From a virus, in the UHGV virus genome UHGV-0293664: a stretch of DNA of 64,000 bases; one strand, 5' to 3'. Positions 2,174 through 39,871 of this stretch are shown piece by piece; position 1 is the first letter of the stretch, and the number at the start of each line of letters is the position of its first letter. Both the position numbers and the translations under genes were made by a program. The notes beneath the pieces are model-generated. The model saw only the letters and a program-made list of their open reading frames with translations. It was not told where the DNA came from and ran no database searches.

Positions 2174-2707
2174 CTACAAATGGTCGCTGAGGGTGTCAAG
2201 AAAATTATCCCGTTCTTTCTCAGAGTTTTCATGTGTGTAGCTGAAAAACATATCGAGAATAACCTTATTGATATATTCCAGCTCCTCTGTGTTCAGATGC
2301 TTAGCAGGATCTACAATGACATCCCAAATATCATACAGACCACACTCATGATACCCATAACGCCACTCAATTGTCAAGCTGAGCGGCAAATCTTTACCTT
2401 CACAAACAACCTTCCATCTACATATGTTGGTATCTGGTCGTACCTGTGCACGGTACACCTGTACAAAATCCAATTTGAATTTAAGGTACTCGTCATACAA
2501 TTTAAACACAAAGCTCTCGATTTGTGGAGACACTTTTGCAGCAAACTGTGCGTATTTGTACTTGCACTGGATGATCTTTCTGCGTTTTGCAGTTAAATTT
2601 TTTGCCGCCAGTTGTTCTTCGGTGTATCTCCACCTACGATCAACAAACGCAACAGGGTCTTTGTCCCCATAGAGGTCTTCCCAGTTAATCAGAAGCATAC
2701 CTGTCAC
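2174..2707 (-). CDS. hypothetical protein (177 aa)
   Basis: ORF with protein-like composition; no motif recognised. Confidence 0.45.
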   Translation of the reverse strand: MTGMLLINWEDLYGDKDPVAFVDRRWRYTEEQLAAKNLTAKRRKIIQCKYKYAQFAAKVSPQIESFVFKLYDEYLKFKLDFVQVYRAQVRPDTNICRWKVVCEGKDLPLSLTIEWRYGYHECGLYDIWDVIVDPAKHLNTEELEYINKVILDMFFSYTHENSEKERDNFLDTLSDHL

Positions 2708-2937
2708 TCCTCCACAACTTCAAGGCCTTTACCGCCTCGCTCTGGCAGATTACTTAAAGATAGGTAATACATATAATCAGGAGAGATCCTGCCAGACTCT
2801 GCACCTGCAGCTAGTAAATCCTTCCCTTTAACCAGGACAACATTCTCGTTTGCAGATAGCCGTTTTGCTTCCACAATTTTACCAACACAGTCAACCAAGG
2901 AAGGGTACCCTAAATCTGTAAGAAATTTAACTTTCAT
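2704..2937 (-). CDS. hypothetical protein (77 aa)
   Basis: ORF. Confidence 0.35.
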   Translation of the reverse strand: MKVKFLTDLGYPSLVDCVGKIVEAKRLSANENVVLVKGKDLLAAGAESGRISPDYMYYLSLSNLPERGGKGLEVVEE

Positions 2938-2976
2938 GCTACCTCCTACTTCTACCGTCCCTGGTAAGATAAATTA

Positions 2977-3375
2977 TTACTGAACAGAGCGCGGTGCTGG
3001 GAAGGATAACTCTTCTAAAGAGAAGATTTCATTTCCTACCACCCAAGTTGCTGGATCATCTGGGTCAACAGGCCGGATAATCATTACCTCATCCGCCTCG
3101 CACACACGTTTCCCACCTATAGTAGCGTCAGCCACTAACATACGCGGCTCTTCAGAAATGCACAGGTAGCCACCTCGGCCCACTGTTCCTTCCACGGGAT
3201 CCTGACCTTTGACCACAATGAATACCTTCTCTCCTGTGGCGATATTACTTTGCACCCTAACAGTTTGACCAACTTTAGATGTACCGATCTTGGTGGCTTC
3301 AAACATTAAATCCCGAATTACTGTTGCATAGTTGCCGGACACTTTCTTACCTTCTTTAGTAATCTCAATCTTCAT
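2977..3375 (-). CDS. hypothetical protein (132 aa)
   Basis: ORF. Confidence 0.45.
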   Translation of the reverse strand: MKIEITKEGKKVSGNYATVIRDLMFEATKIGTSKVGQTVRVQSNIATGEKVFIVVKGQDPVEGTVGRGGYLCISEEPRMLVADATIGGKRVCEADEVMIIRPVDPDDPATWVVGNEIFSLEELSFPAPRSVQ

Positions 3376-3647
3376 AATCTAGGCTCCTTAAATGAATCTA
3401 TGTAATCAATCAAATCCCAAGCATCGCGATGGGCTGTCAGAGGGTATACTTCTCCGAGAGGGATCATAGCAATAAGTCTATCAAAAACCCAGTCTGGACG
3501 CAACATTTTATGGTGATATTCCCACTCACCTTCCACAGATTTTTTCTGAGTGATCAGGATCTCTGTGTAGTGTTTCGCCTGTCTTGAGTAGATTGAAAAT
3601 GCCTTGTACATAAATGACCCCCTCTCTTGTTGAAAACAACAATACAC
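3372..3647 (-). CDS. hypothetical protein (91 aa)
   Basis: ORF. Confidence 0.4.
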   Translation of the reverse strand: MYCCFQQERGSFMYKAFSIYSRQAKHYTEILITQKKSVEGEWEYHHKMLRPDWVFDRLIAMIPLGEVYPLTAHRDAWDLIDYIDSFKEPRL

Positions 3648-3649
3648 AA

Positions 3650-3964
3650 CTACCAGGTTACTGTCAAGTAGGCAACCGTATTATTTTTCTCTGGGGAGAT
3701 GCCAACAACATCTACCTGCAGACCTCCTGCCCTTAAATCTCCAACAATGTGCGGGAAGTAATCTGAGAGATGCGATGGTAGATTTATCGAAAATCCGCAC
3801 CCCAGAAAGCCTGCTAACGCTTTATTTTGTATCTCCCCTACAATCGCATCATAAATGGAGTTAAGCTCGTCAGGGAGCGTTACAGGACGTTTTAGCGCTA
3901 ACTGGTGTAATTTGTCCTTAGCACTCATTTTCATTTCAGGTCTACCTCTGGTGGTGCCAACCAC
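3650..3964 (-). CDS. hypothetical protein (104 aa)
   Basis: ORF. Confidence 0.4.
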   Translation of the reverse strand: MVGTTRGRPEMKMSAKDKLHQLALKRPVTLPDELNSIYDAIVGEIQNKALAGFLGCGFSINLPSHLSDYFPHIVGDLRAGGLQVDVVGISPEKNNTVAYLTVTW

Positions 3965-4464
3965 ATAAATGGCGGCAAGCCTAAACGGTTTTTCTTATCC
4001 CACACAAAATATGCATATGCTTGCCCGTCAGTTCTGCCATTTGATTGAAACGACGGACGCTTAGATATTGTAATCACAGTGGTAGGTGCATTATCAAGCC
4101 ACCATTCAAATCTGGCTTTGCTTTCCAGAAAATTAAGACGTAAAAGCATAATAACTACGTCAGCATCTTTCAACGCCTTGTCTACAAACTCACGAGCCAG
4201 GCTGTATGGTGGGTTGGTGATAATACAGTCAACATGGTTGTATTCTGTATTCAGATAGTCAACACCTTCTTGTATTTCTCCCCATGCAGATCCTAACGGC
4301 ATACGGGAGTAGAACACACCTGAGGCACTATTCCTGCAAGGCTCTAAGTAGGTCCAGTCTTCTGGGAACGGAATAAGGTCATACAGCCCTTCTGCACACC
4401 ACTCCGGTGTCACATACTCATCGTAGGCGTTACGTTGTTCATCAGGTTTTCTAGCACAAGTCAT
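3931..4464 (-). CDS. putative N6-adenine (or N4-cytosine) DNA methyltransferase, small
   Basis: DCIITNPPYS matches amino-methyltransferase motif IV (NPPY); only 177 aa, so could be a compact or partial MTase. Confidence 0.45.
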   Translation of the reverse strand: MTCARKPDEQRNAYDEYVTPEWCAEGLYDLIPFPEDWTYLEPCRNSASGVFYSRMPLGSAWGEIQEGVDYLNTEYNHVDCIITNPPYSLAREFVDKALKDADVVIMLLRLNFLESKARFEWWLDNAPTTVITISKRPSFQSNGRTDGQAYAYFVWDKKNRLGLPPFMWLAPPEVDLK

Positions 4465-9353: not shown

Positions 9354-10562
9354 TCAGCAACTACAACTTCCATAGTGCTTAACTCTCTCGATAACTTCCG
9401 CTTGCTTACCTTTATTATAAGGACGGGAGTTAGGACTGGAAAGGTATCCAGACACACGTCGAATTACACTGATCGTTCCCTCTTCATGGTTTCCACACTC
9501 TGGGCATACAAAGCCTTTAGCTGTTGCACTAAACTCACCAGAGAAACCACACTTGAGACATTTATCCACAGGTTGGTTAATACCAAAATACATAATGTGT
9601 TTATACCCGAAGTCAACAAGAGCCTCTAAAGCATCTAAGTTGTTTTTCAGATTTGGTGTCTCTACATATCCGATGTTGCCACCAGAGGAGATCATAGCAA
9701 AACCTTCCTCATACTTCCACTTATCAAAAGGAGAGCTATTGATCCATACTGGCTGATGGAAACTGTTGGTGAGATATTCATGCTCGTGCTTCAACACTTC
9801 AGGATATTCACGATCCAGACAGGTTGCAGCTTTATAGCATAGACTCTCAGAAGGGGTGCCGTACAAGCTAAACGCTAGTCTACTTTCCTTCTTGTATCGC
9901 TCACAAGCATCTCTCATGTGCTGAAGGATTCCAAGAGCTAAAGCCTTGTCACCCTCTCTGCCCAAAATCTGACAGGTTTCATACACACCAATATACCCAA
10001 TGCTGATGGAAGCGTACCCGTCATAGAAGAGTTTATCAATACTTTCTTCAGGATCCAGGCGAGCAAGAGCGCCTTCACACCACATGATGGGGTTCTGCCC
10101 TGCCTTTGTTCCTTTTAGACGGTTAACCCTTACAAGGTGAGCCTCGTATGCAAGATCCAAGTATTCGTCAAGAACTGCAAAGAAATCAACACCTTCCGTC
10201 TTAGCTTTTGCCGCAATCATTGGCAGGTTAAGGCTAACAACACCCAAGTTGAATCTGCCAAGGTATTTCTCCTCACCTGTTTCCAAGTCATTGTATTTGC
10301 TAAGAAAACTCCTGCAACCCATGCTAGTTACTTTGCCATCTGTCGAGCCTGTCACTTTTCTATTTAGTGGTACAGATACGAAGTCAGGGTAGATACGTTC
10401 TGCACAGCATTCCAGAGCTAATCGTTTCAAATCATAGTTAGGATCCCCAGGGTTCATGTTGACACCCTCTTCCAGGAAGAACAGCACTTTAGGGAACACA
10501 GGTGTAATACGTTCTTCACCAAGACCCATTTTGTGGACTTTCAAGTAGTTTTTGGTAATCAT
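9354..10562 (-). CDS. nrdD: anaerobic ribonucleoside-triphosphate reductase, C-terminal part (exon 2 of split gene)
   Basis: C-terminal Zn ribbon CLKCG...CPECG and glycyl-radical motif RVSGYLSS; lacks the N-terminal half found in the upstream ORF. Confidence 0.8.
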   Translation of the reverse strand: MITKNYLKVHKMGLGEERITPVFPKVLFFLEEGVNMNPGDPNYDLKRLALECCAERIYPDFVSVPLNRKVTGSTDGKVTSMGCRSFLSKYNDLETGEEKYLGRFNLGVVSLNLPMIAAKAKTEGVDFFAVLDEYLDLAYEAHLVRVNRLKGTKAGQNPIMWCEGALARLDPEESIDKLFYDGYASISIGYIGVYETCQILGREGDKALALGILQHMRDACERYKKESRLAFSLYGTPSESLCYKAATCLDREYPEVLKHEHEYLTNSFHQPVWINSSPFDKWKYEEGFAMISSGGNIGYVETPNLKNNLDALEALVDFGYKHIMYFGINQPVDKCLKCGFSGEFSATAKGFVCPECGNHEEGTISVIRRVSGYLSSPNSRPYNKGKQAEVIERVKHYGSCSC

Positions 10563-10870
10563 TCTACCAAAGACCGAGGTATCCAGTCCTAAACTTAATG
10601 TGATAAAAGGGGTTTGCGGTCCCCACCCTTATGTTTCCACAAGGCCAGACTATCTCTTGCCTGAAATCACACCGTGTGATTCTTAATCAGACCTCTGCGT
10701 TTCGGAATCTTCCATAATCCCTACACCAAAAGGTTAGTCGTTACAACCGCCTCACTCCTTGTGAAGCTAGTCACGGGATTGGCATAGCTTTCGCCTTAGC
10801 GTTCCCCGTTAGCCAGCGATCAGCTGACCCCTCATACTGAGGTTAGCAGAGTTTTAAAACGGCCAGTTTG
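10563..10870 (-). ncRNA. putative ORF-less group I intron interrupting nrdD
   Basis: About 310 nt GC-rich, stop-dense insert between the two nrdD ORFs; minus-strand GACUA/UAGUC-type elements; T4 nrdD (sunY) has an intron. Confidence 0.55.
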
Positions 10871-11734
10871 TTAACCGTTGACAGAAGTTAACGTATTTAT
10901 TTGATAGAGCAAAGTCTGCATGCTGTCAAATACGTCTTTATCTGTCATTTGCATTGCAACAGTCTCAGCATCTGGCAACCAATGTTCCTGGCAAAATTTA
11001 AGGTTCTTCTCATAGGTCGCTTCAGCATACTGTGCCAGATAATGATCAATATGGCTCATGGTCTGACCTCCATATTGAGCACTAGCTACTGCACTAGAGA
11101 TTTGGCTAAGGATTGTTGTTGCAACCCCTATTGACTTCGGCTTACTGACATGGGCGTTACCAATGTTGAATCCGTTTTCCAACATATCTGGATAGTTTAC
11201 CAAACAACAGTTTGTTAACGGACTGATCAAGTAGTCAAGATCATGCACATGGATGAAGCCTTTATTGTGCTCTTCTGAGACACGGTTTGGCAGGATCTGT
11301 GTTGATGCAAGGTGTTTGCTAAGGATGCCTGCAAGCAGGTCACGATGAGTGTGTACATGATTGGTAGGCTTATTTGCGTTTTCTTTTGTAAATTCATCAC
11401 AAGTGCGATCCAAGAAGCCACTAATATCTGCAAGCAGTTTTCCACCTGCCTCTCTGTTATTATCTCTTGTCTGCCTATACTGGATGTATTCTCTGGCTGC
11501 ACATTTTAAACCCATATCCATAAGAGCGTCTTCAACAAGGATATGGATATTTTTTACAGAGATCGTGCACTGGTCGGTTGGTAGATTGTTAGCAACAACT
11601 TCATTAACCGCGCAGGCGATCCGGTAAGCTTCTTCTTCAGTATGTCCAGACTCAAGTAAGGCGGACTCTGCCGCCTTGATCACCTTAATTCCGTTATAGA
11701 CCTCTTCTCTACCGTCCCGTTTTACAACTTTCAC
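10871..11734 (-). CDS. nrdD: anaerobic ribonucleoside-triphosphate reductase, N-terminal part (exon 1, ATP-cone)
   Basis: N-terminal ATP-cone-like MKVVKRDGREEVYNGIKV; colinear with the downstream C-terminal ORF. Confidence 0.8.
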   Translation of the reverse strand: MKVVKRDGREEVYNGIKVIKAAESALLESGHTEEEAYRIACAVNEVVANNLPTDQCTISVKNIHILVEDALMDMGLKCAAREYIQYRQTRDNNREAGGKLLADISGFLDRTCDEFTKENANKPTNHVHTHRDLLAGILSKHLASTQILPNRVSEEHNKGFIHVHDLDYLISPLTNCCLVNYPDMLENGFNIGNAHVSKPKSIGVATTILSQISSAVASAQYGGQTMSHIDHYLAQYAEATYEKNLKFCQEHWLPDAETVAMQMTDKDVFDSMQTLLYQINTLTSVNG

Positions 11735-35396: not shown

Positions 35397-35471
35397 GCCC
35401 TGTTAGCTTAGTGGATAAAGCAGCGGCCTTCTAAGCCGTTGACACTGGTTCGAGTCCAGTACGGGGTGCCA
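35397..35471 (+). tRNA. tRNA-Arg (anticodon UCU)
   Basis: Hand-folded cloverleaf: acceptor GCCCTGT/ACGGGGT (two G-U), D-stem GCTT/AAGC, anticodon loop CTTCTAA, T-arm ACTGG-TTCGAGT-CCAGT, CCA encoded. Confidence 0.65.
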
Positions 35472-35601
35472 AGTTCTTTTTAATGTAGCTTACTTTAGCA
35501 GAGTAAATCTTCGGCAAGTGGCGGTAACCACTTTACCGATACCTCATAGTTAGTGGTGAGAACACTAGCTATTTTAAAAAGAATTTAAATATTAGTATTT
35601 A

Positions 35602-35689
35602 GGTGAGTTAATTCCGTAGGGGTAGCGGGGCAGACTGTAAATCTGTTATCATTGCGATTCGGGTGGTTCGACTCCATCACTCACCACCA
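35602..35689 (+). tRNA. tRNA-Tyr (anticodon GUA), long variable arm
   Basis: Acceptor GGTGAGT/ACTCACC, anticodon arm GCAGA-CTGTAAA-TCTGT, long variable arm, T-loop TTCGACT, CCA encoded. Confidence 0.65.
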
Positions 35690-35803
35690 AATTTATATTT
35701 TTAAATGCATAAATCATACAGATAATGGCATTGATATTTATCGTCGTTTATACTAGTCACTAACTGCTCGAAAATCAGTGTCATTATCAGTATTGTTTAT
35801 AAA

Positions 35804-35894
35804 AGAGGGTAGGGAGCAATGGTGCTCAAGCGGTCTTGAAAACCGTCCCGTTGAGGATGACTCGATGATGGTTCGATTCCATTATCCTCTGCCA
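35804..35894 (+). tRNA. tRNA-Ser (anticodon UGA), class II
   Basis: Acceptor AGAGGGT/ATCCTCT, anticodon loop CTTGAAA, long variable arm, T-loop TTCGATT, CCA encoded. Confidence 0.6.
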
Positions 35895-35992
35895 TATTGT
35901 TGACCTTGTAATTAAGCGAAAGCCGGAAGCAGAACCGGATTATCAAATGTTACAGTCGTCATCGCCGACTAGCAACATGGTCAACATACTGA

Positions 35993-36089
35993 GCTAGGTA
36001 AGCCCTTTGGCAAGGGCGAGGATTTTTAATCCTGAAAATAGACGAGGTAGTCGTTGAATACATAGGTGGTTCGATTCCATCACCTAGCA
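35993..36089 (+). tRNA. atypical tRNA-like gene (97 nt; anticodon uncertain, possibly UUU)
   Basis: Perfect 7-bp acceptor GCTAGGT/ACCTAGC, D-stem GCCC/GGGC, T-arm GGTGG-TTCGATT-CCATC, but only a 4-bp anticodon stem AGGA/TCCT (loop TTTTTAA), a 30-nt extra region and no full CCA. Confidence 0.45.
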
Positions 36090-36096
36090 CCTTTTT

Positions 36097-36172
36097 GCTG
36101 ATGTAGCACAATTGGTAGTGCAATTGATTTGTAATCAATAGGTTGCAGGTTCGAGTCCTGCTATCAGCACCA
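36097..36172 (+). tRNA. tRNA-Thr (anticodon UGU)
   Basis: Acceptor GCTGATG/TATCAGC, D-stem GCAC/GTGC, anticodon arm ATTGA-TTTGTAA-TCAAT, T-arm GCAGG-TTCGAGT-CCTGC, CCA. Confidence 0.7.
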
Positions 36173-36173
36173 T

Positions 36174-36248
36174 GGCCCTGTAGCTGGAAGGTTCAAGCAA
36201 GCGACTCATAATCGCCAGACGGTGGTTCAATTCCACCCAGGGCCACCA
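36174..36248 (+). tRNA. tRNA-Met (anticodon CAU; initiator, elongator or Ile2 not distinguishable)
   Basis: Acceptor GGCCCTG/CAGGGCC, anticodon loop CTCATAA, T-arm GGTGG-TTCAATT-CCACC, CCA. Confidence 0.65.
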
Positions 36249-36259
36249 AATAATAAATA

Positions 36260-36336
36260 CTCCGCGTAGCTCAGCTTGGTAGAGCGCCTGATTTGGGATC
36301 AGGAGGTCGAGTGTTCGAATCACTCCGTGGAGACCA
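36260..36336 (+). tRNA. tRNA-Pro (anticodon UGG)
   Basis: Acceptor CTCCGCG/CGTGGAG, D-arm GCTC-AGCTTGGTA-GAGC, anticodon arm CCTGA-TTTGGGA-TCAGG, T-arm GAGTG-TTCGAAT-CACTC, CCA. Confidence 0.7.
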
Positions 36337-36758: not shown

Positions 36759-37157
36759 ATGATTTCAGTTTTAACATGGCTGAGCAGGTATAGAGGGGTC
36801 ATAAAAGGTTTAGTTTTTGCAGCTGCGATAGGTACAGCTTATCTTGGGGCCGTATATTGGTTTAACTCTAAGATTAATGAAGCCTACCAAGAGGGTGTAT
36901 CAGCAACAGAGTTAAAGTGGGAACGGATCCTTGATCAGCAACAAAAGCAGGCCGACAAAATTAAAATGGGCCACGCAGAGGAGGTTAAAAACCTTGAAAA
37001 ATCCCTTTCTGATCTGCAGGATAAATTAAATATGGCTGAGAAGGCAGGTAAAGAAAAGCAGATTATCTACCTCCAGTCACCTGAGGGCAAGAAGTCAACA
37101 CTTCCTGATCAGCTTATAGATATTTATAATGAGAGTATCAATCAGGAGGATCAATGA
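36759..37157 (+). CDS. putative i-spanin (Rz-like inner-membrane lysis protein)
   Basis: N-terminal TM helix (VIKGLVFAAAIGTAYLGAVYWF) then charged helical coiled-coil-like region; followed by a lipoprotein gene. Confidence 0.45.
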   Translation: MISVLTWLSRYRGVIKGLVFAAAIGTAYLGAVYWFNSKINEAYQEGVSATELKWERILDQQQKQADKIKMGHAEEVKNLEKSLSDLQDKLNMAEKAGKEKQIIYLQSPEGKKSTLPDQLIDIYNESINQEDQ

Positions 37158-37441
37158 GAGTTGCTACACTGTTTATTGTGTGCTTGTTATTATGTGGGTG
37201 TGCAACCAGCGTTGAGAGAGAATACAAGATTGACCCTCCTGATGTAGGAAGGTTGATTGTTAAACCCCCGGAAGGTGCCATGAAACCACCTGCTAAAGCT
37301 ATGCCTTTGAAGAAAGGTGCGCCAGATGCAGTGAATTCTGGCATTATGAGGGATAATAATCTGTCTTGTAGCAATGATAGAGTTAAATTGATCATTTTGC
37401 AAGACTATATTAGAACACTGTTTCCAAAGGAGAGAGGTTAA
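37154..37441 (+). CDS. putative o-spanin (Rz1-like outer-membrane lipoprotein)
   Basis: Signal peptide with lipobox-like LLLCGC and a Pro-rich mature region (DPPDVG...KPPEGAMKPPAKAMP). Confidence 0.5.
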   Translation: MRVATLFIVCLLLCGCATSVEREYKIDPPDVGRLIVKPPEGAMKPPAKAMPLKKGAPDAVNSGIMRDNNLSCSNDRVKLIILQDYIRTLFPKERG

Positions 37442-37869
37442 TGTCTAAGATTTACGGACCGTGTTCTGAAAAGCAGAAGATGATCCTAGAAAACGATGCA
37501 GATATTTTGGTAATCGGCGGTGCCGCAGGGTCTGGCAAGTCGTTCCTCCTGCAGTTGATGCCGCTTAAAATTATTGATGACCCACACAGCTCTGTGGTTA
37601 TGTTCCGAAGAACAACTCCACAGTTGGAAGGTGAGGGTGGGCTATGGCCTAAAGCAGTAGCTATTTACAGTGATCTGCCTGAAAACATTAAACCAAAGTT
37701 CAGAGAAAAGGATCATAAGTTTATTTTTCCACGGTTTGATCCGAGCACTGGCAAGTGGGATAGGAGCAAAAAGGGGGCCGTTGTAAAATACTGCCACATG
37801 GAGTATGTCCAAGATAAGCTTAACCATCAAGGCCTTGAGTACACAATGGTTTGCTTCGATGAGGGTTAA
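37441..37869 (+). CDS. terminase large subunit, N-terminal ATPase part (exon 1 or split-gene part 1)
   Basis: Walker A VIGGAAGSGKS and Walker B MVCFDE; ORF stops right after Walker B. Confidence 0.75.
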   Translation: MSKIYGPCSEKQKMILENDADILVIGGAAGSGKSFLLQLMPLKIIDDPHSSVVMFRRTTPQLEGEGGLWPKAVAIYSDLPENIKPKFREKDHKFIFPRFDPSTGKWDRSKKGAVVKYCHMEYVQDKLNHQGLEYTMVCFDEG

Positions 37870-37916
37870 TTTGTAGCTCTCGTAAAACCTCCCTAATTGC
37901 GGGGAAATCTTTATTA

Positions 37917-37945
37917 TTGACACCACCAACCTGTCATGGTAACAT
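37917..37945 (+). promoter_or_regulatory. sigma70-like promoter inside the intron-like element
   Basis: TTGACA (37917-37922), 17-nt spacer, TAACAT (37940-37945). Confidence 0.4.
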
Positions 37946-38084
37946 GATAGAGGCTTCGAAGAGAGATCGAAGGTATGGTAACAGTGTGTTAATTTAGATA
38001 ATCCGCAGCGAAGCATCCGAAAGGATGAACGTTCAACGACTAGTCGAAAGACGTAGAATCAAGCGATTCGAAACGGGAGGGTGA

Positions 38085-38675
38085 ATGTGTAATACTAAAA
38101 AATGTATGGATTGCCAAAGAGTTCTACCTCTTGATGATTTCTTTTTATCATCTAAGAGCAAGGATGGATACTCCGGTACATGCAAGGAATGCTATATGTA
38201 CTACAGGAAGAATGGATCTCGTAGAAACAAAAATATGGTTAAGAGAGATGATGCAGCATCTTTTATTCAAGACTTACTGAAGAAAGGTGAGCTTTTTGAA
38301 TGTAAATCTTGTCATGAAAGTATGCTTGCTGATAGTTTTTACACAAAACGTGACTATGGTAAAGTGTATCTGGTTACGAACAGGTGTAAGATGTGTGAAA
38401 AGTTTTATCAGATTGAGAAGAAATTTCACATAACAAAAGATGAATACTATCGTTTACTCTCAGATCAAGATCATAAGTGTGCCATTTGTAGAATATCTCT
38501 TGATGAGTATAGGACGCAAGGGTACAGAGATTTCTTTTGTGTTGATCATGACCATAAAACTGGTGCTGTAAGAGGGTTGCTTTGTGATAAATGCAACAGA
38601 GCTTTAGGTTTCTTCCAAGAGGATGAGGAAACCATTCTTAGAGCAGCAGAGTATTTGCACATTCATAAGATATAG
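38085..38675 (+). CDS. HNH / endonuclease VII-like homing endonuclease
   Basis: CVDHDHKTGAVRGLLCDKCNRALGFF EndoVII/HNH catalytic core plus N-terminal Cys clusters; lies within the terminase interruption. Confidence 0.7.
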   Translation: MCNTKKCMDCQRVLPLDDFFLSSKSKDGYSGTCKECYMYYRKNGSRRNKNMVKRDDAASFIQDLLKKGELFECKSCHESMLADSFYTKRDYGKVYLVTNRCKMCEKFYQIEKKFHITKDEYYRLLSDQDHKCAICRISLDEYRTQGYRDFFCVDHDHKTGAVRGLLCDKCNRALGFFQEDEETILRAAEYLHIHKI

Positions 38676-38782
38676 TCTGGTCTGCATGGAGACATGCAGC
38701 TGCCTGAAAATGGCGGGGCAAGACTAGCGACCTTGCCCGAACATAAACGACGCAGTTCGAATGGGAGCAGATAGACTATCTG

Positions 38783-39871
38783 ATGTCTCGTCTGCGATCT
38801 CAGTCAAAGTATCCATCAAGAATGGTTATCAGCTGTAACCCCGATTCAGAACACATGCTTGCCAAACTGGTTAGGTGGTGGTTGGACGATGAAGGGTATC
38901 CAGATCCGGAGAAATGCGGTAAGAAAAGATATTTTATCCGACGCGACGGTGAATTTATCTGGGGAGACTCTAAAGAAGAGTTGATAGAGAAATACACCAC
39001 GGTTAACGGACTGGGTGTAGAGATCAAGCCGAGACCGTTGTCATTCTCGTTTATAGGCGCAACAATCTTCGATAATCCTGTCTGTTTGAGAGACAACCCA
39101 GAATACCTTGCTTTCCTTGAAGGTCTACCCGAGCTTGAAAAAGCTCAGCTTCTTCATGGCAACTGGTTTGCCAAACCTGAGGGTGCGAACTATTTCCAAA
39201 GATCTTTCCTTCGTGATGCCGATAGAGTACCACTTGGATCAGTATCTTGCAGGGCATGGGATAAAGCTGGAACTGAAAGAACTTCAGGTAATAAATTCCC
39301 TGACTTTACCGCCAGTGTTAAGGTAAGTAAAGATAGCGACGGCTTTTATTACCTGTCCGGTTATTATTGTCCTGAGAACGTGGATGACGGGAGGTATTCC
39401 ACAGGTCTGGAAGGTAAGTTCTGTAAAAAGGCTGGTGAACGAGATGTGATCATCAGGAAACAGGCACAGTTTGATGGTGATGATTGTATAATCGTATTCT
39501 CTGTGGACCCCGGTCAGGCAGGTAAGAGTGAGTTCTTAACTTCCTCCAGATCCTTACTCGCCGAAGGGTTTAGGGTTGAAGAAGACCCAATGCCTTCCAA
39601 CAAATCTAAACTAACAAGGTTCTCACCTTTTGCCAATCTTGCCCAACAAGGAATGGTGAGGATTGTAAAATCCAGTTTTCATCCTGATACTCTGGAAGCA
39701 TTTCTGACTGAACTTGAAAAATTCAACGGGGAAAGATCAACATTTAACAGAAAAGACGACTGGGCCGACTGTGTAGCTTCTGCGATTAATTTCCTGGAGA
39801 AAGAGGAGGTAGCACTTCCTTGTGTTATTCCATCAATCTCATCACCTTCTATGTTCAAGCGTTTTATCTAA
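38783..39871 (+). CDS. terminase large subunit, C-terminal nuclease part (exon 2 or part 2)
   Basis: Continues colinearly after the Walker B region; acidic catalytic-type residues (VDPGQAGKSE, DDWADCVASA); true 5' boundary undetermined. Confidence 0.7.
   Translation: MSRLRSQSKYPSRMVISCNPDSEHMLAKLVRWWLDDEGYPDPEKCGKKRYFIRRDGEFIWGDSKEELIEKYTTVNGLGVEIKPRPLSFSFIGATIFDNPVCLRDNPEYLAFLEGLPELEKAQLLHGNWFAKPEGANYFQRSFLRDADRVPLGSVSCRAWDKAGTERTSGNKFPDFTASVKVSKDSDGFYYLSGYYCPENVDDGRYSTGLEGKFCKKAGERDVIIRKQAQFDGDDCIIVFSVDPGQAGKSEFLTSSRSLLAEGFRVEEDPMPSNKSKLTRFSPFANLAQQGMVRIVKSSFHPDTLEAFLTELEKFNGERSTFNRKDDWADCVASAINFLEKEEVALPCVIPSISSPSMFKRFI

Follow-up and report, generated by a model that had tools for sequence, protein, structure and literature searches.

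Is the large terminase subunit (TerL) of this phage encoded by two adjacent genes, or by one gene that an intron interrupts? The locus lies in a 64,000-nt stretch of the virus genome UHGV-0293664 (hereafter the window), which by its sequence is an rV5-like Vequintavirus of E. coli with ECP26 as the closest phage match (97.4% identity). All the features of the TerL locus are on the plus strand. A 142-amino acid (aa) open reading frame (ORF) at 37441–37869 carries both the Walker A (VIGGAAGSGKS) and Walker B (MVCFDE) motifs and matches positions 2–104 of the Pfam profile Terminase_6N; as a preliminary description of this locus had stated, it stops at 37869. A second ORF, at 38783–39871 and in a different frame, matches positions 117–211 of the same profile as well as the RNaseH-like Terminase_6C. 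Between the two lies a gene for an HNH/endonuclease VII (EndoVII)-type protein. We concluded, with high confidence, that the interruption in TerL is a mobile group I intron of phage type IA, a relative of the td intron of T4, and that it carries the gene of a putative EndoVII-type HNH homing endonuclease.

The exact junction was obtained by aligning the locus to uninterrupted terminases, which placed it at 37866|38750. The 3′ boundary of exon 1 was set by the alignment to intronless alleles together with the breakpoints of the other copies; all of the interrupted alleles examined (eight of eight) break at the spliced coordinate 426|427. Exon 1 (37441–37866) has 142 codons, includes Walker A (GGAAGSGKS) and Walker B (MVCFDE), and ends in ...GAG GGT. 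Exon 2 (38750–39871) has 373 codons and a stop, begins with TQFEWEQIDYLMSRLRS, and encodes the remaining part of the ATPase and the RNaseH-like nuclease domain. The insertion is in phase 0, between Gly142 and Thr143, immediately after the Walker B residues D140–E141. The change of frame between the two ORFs follows from the intron length of 883 nt, which is 3n+1. The preliminary description was correct in placing the nuclease half in another frame, but its start at about 38783 did not hold; an open frame for exon 2 extends back to 38747, from where it reads TTQFEWEQIDYLMSRLRS, and the residues TQFEWEQIDYL are encoded upstream of its first ATG (38783).

When 37866 was joined to 38750 in silico, we obtained a 1548-nt ORF for a 515-aa TerL, in which the predicted spliced junction reads ...GATGAGGGT|ACGCAGTTC... 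The same length, 1548 nt, is found for the uninterrupted TerL coding sequence (CDS) of the BASEL phage Bas59 (MZ501061), which reads ...TTCGATGAAGGC|ACGCAATTCGAA... across the insertion site; among 516 aligned positions, its product and the predicted spliced protein disagree at one. The spliced protein gave a single Terminase_6N match over residues 25–294 with 72.6 bits, plus Terminase_6C, whereas the separate halves scored 26 and 28 bits. At the level of sequence, then, excision of the intron restores an intact, in-frame TerL.

Next, we analyzed the 883-nt insertion itself (37867–38749). It opens with TAA, the stop codon read in the frame of exon 1, and closes with G38749, the omega G. The Rfam model Intron_gpI (RF00028) matched 37857–38699 over its full length (model positions 1–253) with 47 bits (E = 2e-10), and both P1 and the terminal G were found. 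This full-length match and the junction uphold the earlier proposal that TerL is interrupted, right behind Walker B, by a group I intron that carries an HNH/EndoVII gene. When the intron was folded without constraints in ViennaRNA after removal of the ORF interior, P1, P3, P4, P5 with a long extension, P6a, P7.2, P8, P9 and a 3′ hairpin at 38712–39 were recovered.

In the P1 helix (37861–37881; −7.1 kcal/mol), GAGGGUUA pairs with UAGCUCUC, that is, the exon sequence GAGGGU plus UA with the internal guide sequence at 37874–37881, and both the Rfam alignment and the fold show U37866·G37876 as the wobble at the 5′ splice site. The 5′ strand of P3, CCUCCC (37888–37893), is paired in both analyses with GGGAGG at 38075–38080. 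P4, P5 and the long P5 extension occupy 37898–38007, closed by UGCGGG (37898–37903) and UCCGCA (38002–38007), with a folding energy of −36.5 kcal/mol, and the extension contains a hairpin at 37931–37950 with a GUAA loop. P6a follows in the fold as CAUCC-GAAA-GGAUG (38014–38027). Between P7 and the 3′ strand of P3 lie P7.1 and P7.2 (38043–38069), formed by GUC-GAAA-GAC (38043–38052) and GAAUC-AAGC-GAUUC (38056–38069); in this region the intron is 29 nt longer than the Rfam consensus, and both of these hairpins formed when the segment 38040–38078 was folded alone. In the ORF-deleted fold, the 5′ strand of P8, UGAAUGUG (38082–38089), pairs with CACAUUCA (38658–38665), and the ORF fills the loop. 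J8/7 and the 3′ strand of P7 (AAGAUAUAGUC), followed by P9 (CUGCAUG-GAGA-CAUGCAG), were assigned to 38667–38699 from the Rfam alignment of the identical rV5 sequence, and the fold has the P9 helix at 38682–99. The intron closes with a 3′ extension hairpin, GGGCAAG...CUUGCCC, and the tail AACAUAAACG (38712–38749).

From P7.1/P7.2 and from the 83.5% identity of the J8/7–P7–P9 part (the 3′ core) to the T4 td intron, we provisionally placed the element with the phage group I introns of the T4-like subgroup IA. The flanks of the HNH gene are indeed the group I core that the preliminary description had suspected; its remark that they are GC-rich applies only to the 74-nt 3′ core (55%), the 5′ core being at 43%, the value of the whole window. 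The HNH ORF is AT-rich (35% GC).

The changes seen inside the ribozyme among related phages are structure-neutral, as judged from the aligned copies. In the P5-extension hairpin, four loci have C-G at the pair 37935:37946, one has U·G and three have U-A, and the locus L001 has G-C in place of G·U at 37933:37948. The C/T difference at 38738 turns a G-C pair of the 3′ extension hairpin into G·U, and the P6a loop, GAAA in the window, is GAGA in the seven other loci, so that a GNRA loop is retained.

Four observations weigh against this reading of the insertion. Firstly, the 47 bits of the window copy are 3 below the Rfam gathering score of 50. This is explained by a net insertion of 564 nt in the P8 loop, where the ORF lies; the ORF-less 319-nt copy of rV5 at the same site, whose core aligns base for base with that of the window, scored 84.9 bits (E = 4e-20). 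Secondly, the Rfam match stops at 38699, 50 nt short of the 3′ splice site, and therefore the final hairpin and the omega G are based on the comparison with intronless alleles, which places the intron end at ...AACAUAAACG38749, and not on the model. Thirdly, covariation is thin because all the copies are at least 95% identical. Finally, P10 is weak, with at best three pairs (exon 2 ACG with UGU at 37872–37874); these were spotted by eye and were not used as evidence.

The weak P10, together with the lack of P2 in the Rfam alignment, would also fit a decayed intron, in which the core is still recognizable but self-splicing has become inefficient, so that host or phage factors are needed or a reduced amount of terminase is tolerated. 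For some introns of the Bastillevirinae, splicing was observed in vivo and not in vitro (PMC11878797), which lends this possibility a precedent. However, the terminase is essential and the carriers of this allele, such as Bas50 and ECP26, are viable isolates, and the core is conserved with only the structure-neutral changes described above. We consider such decay unlikely.

If the intron is active, as its anatomy leads us to expect, splicing would proceed as follows. Transcription of the TerL pre-mRNA would run through the intron, and translation of exon 1 would end at the TAA formed by intron bases 1–3, leaving the ribozyme free to fold. An external guanosine would then attack after U37866, which the U·G wobble positions in P1. 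The freed exon 1 would in turn attack after G38749, joining ...GAG GGT to ACG CAG... and giving the mRNA for a normal 515-aa terminase.

We then compared the state of the insertion site across relatives. The intron core was found at 95% identity or more in 56 phage records, and the architecture of intron plus ORF in 30 public phage records; the number of records with this HNH protein at no less than 95% aa identity was likewise exactly 30. About 26 records would therefore carry an ORF-less intron. Around 63 of the 119 related records are uninterrupted at this site, and the empty, ORF-less and intron-plus-ORF alleles coexist among phages that are at least 95% identical to one another. Among distant TerL relatives (30–69% identity), an IMG/VR scan that yielded few informative loci found the site apparently uninterrupted. 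The last codon of exon 1 is GGT in eight of eight intron-bearing alleles and the synonymous GGC in three of three uninterrupted ones; GGT provides the U of the P1 U·G wobble (T at 37866).

These alleles bear directly on the alternative of a true split terminase, which the preliminary description had raised and which is not supported. Here the transcript would stay unspliced, and a 142-aa ATPase N-terminal fragment would assemble after translation with a C-terminal fragment started at ATG 38783. The halves do form two ORFs that differ in frame, the first of them closed by a stop behind exon 1, and there are precedents: NrdA of the Aeromonas phage Aeh1 is split by mobE and is not spliced, and one HNH insertion of the phage CB7 is also unspliced (PMC7344957). 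However, the insertion contains a complete group I core, and the spliced TerL is identical to the uninterrupted homologue at 515 of 516 positions. A start at ATG 38783 would lose the 11 conserved residues TQFEWEQIDYL, which are found in the uninterrupted homologues, and this ATG is not preceded by a suitably spaced Shine–Dalgarno (SD) sequence, as the nearby GGGAG ends 15 nt upstream. Moreover, the U at −1 needed for P1 is fixed in the intron-bearing alleles and absent from the intronless ones, and the ORF-less 319-nt form would be purposeless as a gene splitter. We rejected the unspliced, split terminase on the complete ribozyme core, the lack of a usable start or SD for exon 2 and the fixed U at −1, and we regard it as very improbable.

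The ORF within the intron (38085–38675, 591 nt, plus strand), whose presence had been described correctly, encodes a 196-aa protein whose match to Pfam Endonuclease_7 (PF02945) scored 76.1 bits, the cutoff being 23.6. Two CxxC...CxxC modules lie towards its N-terminus, and a His-Me finger, CVDHDH...CDKCN, lies towards its C-terminus. In the sequence CAIC...CVDHDHKTGAVRGLLCDKCN, the Cys4 zinc site and the catalytic DH...N residues are directly visible. The protein falls into the PHROG ‘endonuclease VII’ families, and its PDB matches are Hpy99I and T4 endonuclease VII. The preliminary description had called the gene free-standing; it sits, on the contrary, in the P8 loop of the intron. Its SD is the 3′ strand of P3 itself, GGGAGG(G) at 38075–38081, 4 nt before the ATG, which lies in the 5′ strand of P8, and its TAG stop (38673–38675) lies in the 3′ strand of P7. 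As SD, start and stop are all within P3, P8 and P7, translation of the ORF and folding of the ribozyme should be mutually exclusive in any one RNA molecule.

The location in the P8 loop and the presence/absence polymorphism among close relatives lead us to assign this ORF as a putative intron-encoded homing endonuclease. It would cut the intronless TerL of co-infecting relatives, and recombinational repair would copy the intron together with nearby exon markers. Codon differences between the copies are mostly synonymous (10–14 synonymous versus 4–5 nonsynonymous), and two of the seven copies carry a frameshift. Conservation together with these frameshifts fits a homing endonuclease gene that cycles between invasion and decay. 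The locus thereby illustrates the stages of such a life cycle at one site: empty alleles, ORF-less introns, intact introns with the ORF, and frameshifted ORFs.

Could the HNH protein instead be mainly a packaging accessory of the terminase, like gp74 of HK97, whose location inside TerL reflects that function rather than selfish spread? In HK97-like phages, HNH proteins whose genes neighbour those of the terminase enhance its cutting (Kala et al. 2014, as cited in PMC7344957), and here the HNH gene is inside TerL. But 89 of the 119 closely related records (about three quarters) do without the gene, rV5 has the same intron without it, and the frameshifts in two of seven copies would be difficult to reconcile with such a function, as would the location of the gene in a loop of the ribozyme, where helices enclose its SD and AUG. 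We give this explanation very little probability and retain that of a homing endonuclease. An intein does not apply, given the stop codon at the end of exon 1 and the change of frame by one.

The arrangement had been put forward as notable; it is real but ordinary, and an intron in TerL is already known from this group of phages. Kropinski et al. (2013) described ‘Introns in terminase’ of rV5 and listed ‘TerL (spliced), 515 aa’ (PMC3606486), and in the GenBank record NC_011041 of rV5 the TerL gene, rv5_gp065, is a three-piece CDS. The gene, the insertion site 426|427 and the ribozyme are the same as in the window, and the cores are about 98% identical with five differences outside the P8 region. 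However, intron 1 of rV5 is ORF-less and 319 nt long, with a P8 hairpin, UAAGCGA-UUGUUG-UCGCUUA, in place of the 591-nt HNH ORF, and unlike the window rV5 has a second TerL intron with a different HNH protein (HNH_3 plus helix-turn-helix, HTH) at ~744.

The exact architecture is annotated in the BASEL phage Bas50 DrSchubert (MZ501060) as a two-piece TerL CDS and a 591-nt ‘putative homing endonuclease’. The nucleotide identity to the window is 97%, and apart from a few substitutions we observed no substantial difference. The BASEL phages WalterGehring, MaxBurger and HeinrichReichert and about 26 other records also have this architecture. The intron boundaries of the BASEL phages were determined by comparative genomics (Maffei et al. 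2021, PMC8594841). Many records, for example JES2013 and HdK5, annotate the locus as two separate terminase genes. The main value of our analysis is thus in annotation: the window encodes one 515-aa TerL with its exons joined at 37866|38750, not two terminase genes and an ‘endonuclease VII’.

Group I introns in TerL, several of them with HNH ORFs, are also present in the Pectobacterium phage CB7 (Certrevirus, Vequintavirinae), in the Lactobacillus phage LL-H and in the Bastillevirinae; these resemble the intron of the window in host gene and intron type but reside in other phages and hosts. The HNH-bearing TerL intron of CB7 is spliced, as established by reverse-transcription PCR and cDNA sequencing (PMC7344957). 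TerL introns of the Bastillevirinae splice in vitro and in vivo, and splicing of the TerL intron of SIOphi was demonstrated experimentally (both PMC11878797). TerL introns have been known from LL-H since 1995 (as cited in PMC3606486) and from rV5 since 2013; the intron itself opens no new question.

With the T4 intron td and its endonuclease I-TevI, as well as nrdB/I-TevIII and nrdD/I-TevII, the element shares the phage group I type with P7.1/P7.2, an endonuclease ORF in a peripheral loop, a ribosome-binding site of this ORF that is buried in RNA structure, and a promoter-like site in the intron upstream of the ORF. Unlike in T4 td, the host gene encodes a terminase and not an enzyme of nucleotide metabolism, the endonuclease is of the EndoVII-type HNH and not of the GIY-YIG family, and the ORF is located in P8 and not in P6. 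The candidate promoter also differs: it is of the sigma-70-like kind, in contrast to the middle and late promoters of T4.

This promoter-like site, TTGACA-N17-TAACAT with a TG extension, had been pointed out in the preliminary description and is present at 37917–37945 (plus strand), with 10 of 12 consensus matches, the best in the stretch. The total number of such sites in the region is barely above chance, 10 against 7.1 ± 2.1 in shuffled sequences. The −35 hexamer lies within the stem of the P5 extension, and the −10 hexamer coincides with the GUAA loop and the 3′ arm of the covarying hairpin 37931–37950. Both of the hexamers are identical in the ORF-less intron of rV5. The site is labelled ‘promoter predicted by PhagePromoter’ in MT682716 and is missing from the list of 33 promoters given by the authors of rV5. 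As a proof that the HNH gene is an independent cassette, the promoter was not accepted: its hexamers are in P5-extension helices with compensatory change, they are unchanged where the ORF is lacking, and the site count is near chance.

A function in transcription is nevertheless plausible by analogy with T4, where internal promoters and sequestration of the ribosome-binding site have been proven for three intron endonucleases (PMC2988022). The site is downstream of the 5′ strand of P3 (37888–93), the partner of which, GGGAGG, is the SD of the HNH ORF. A transcript starting beyond 37945 would lack this strand and would leave the SD free. Directly after the −10 hexamer, GGCTTCGAAGAGAGATCGAAG (37952–37972) is identical at 15 of 21 positions to the intronless homing site TGCTTCGATGAGGGCACGCAG, a value that was reached by 4 of 100 mononucleotide shuffles. 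The 21-nt length used in this comparison was picked post hoc, which makes it a weak lead. Tentatively, the P5 extension might be dual-coded, with a sigma-70 promoter (37917–37945) that yields SD-free transcripts and an operator (37952–37972) through which the HNH protein represses its own synthesis; we consider this possible but on balance doubtful. If it were true, the extension would represent a counterpart of the I-TevI circuit that arose independently, with host-type promoter elements inside structural RNA helices of a late-gene intron. A possible role of the P5 extension as promoter and operator for the endonuclease is the sole point here with some novelty.

A second intron site of TerL, at the spliced coordinate ~744, is empty in the window (~39066–39068). 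It is filled in rV5, HdK5 and the IMG/VR contig L012 by a ~980-nt insertion with a different HNH protein (HNH_3 plus HTH; 231 aa in rV5). The insertion spans 3127–4106 in the locus L002 and 2335–3314 in the locus L004, and Intron_gpI gave only weak matches at this site, of 34.9 and 24.4 bits. The occupancy of this site is independent of that of the 426|427 site.

Elsewhere in the window, nrdD (class III anaerobic ribonucleotide reductase) is encoded on the minus strand and is split by a second, ORF-less group I intron at 10563–10870. The Rfam hit (10883..10627, Intron_gpI) scored 29.2 bits (E = 1.5e-5 for the local stretch), which is below the gathering score. The exons correspond to the ORFs 11734..10871 (ATP-cone and NRDD positions 1–154) and 10562..9354 (NRDD positions 180–562 and Gly_radical). 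Relatives have nrdD alleles with no insertion, with an ORF-less intron as in the window, or with an intron plus HNH (for example, MZ501111, FV3 and FFH2). The second TerL site and the nrdD intron vary independently.

Among the database records, 18 entries named ‘Campylobacter phage’ (MG0656xx; host C. jejuni) are 96–97% identical to the present rV5-like terminase region of an E. coli phage, and the host or name assignment of these records looks doubtful.

Directly upstream of TerL are overlapping genes for an i-spanin (36759–37157) and an o-spanin (37154–37441), annotated as spanins in Bas50 and Bas59, and the start of TerL overlaps the stop of the o-spanin gene (an ATGA-type overlap at 37441). 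Upstream of the spanin and terminase genes is a tRNA cluster at 35397–36336 with Arg-tct, Ser-tga, Thr-tgt, Met-cat and Pro-tgg, and also a tRNA hit at 35602–35686 that was obtained with Rfam only. Within the span of the cluster, ARAGORN reported an odd 99-nt ‘tRNA-???’ at 35993–36091 with a four-base anticodon (atcc), which scored 35.5 bits with the Rfam tRNA model and is annotated as ‘tRNA-OTHER’ in HdK5.

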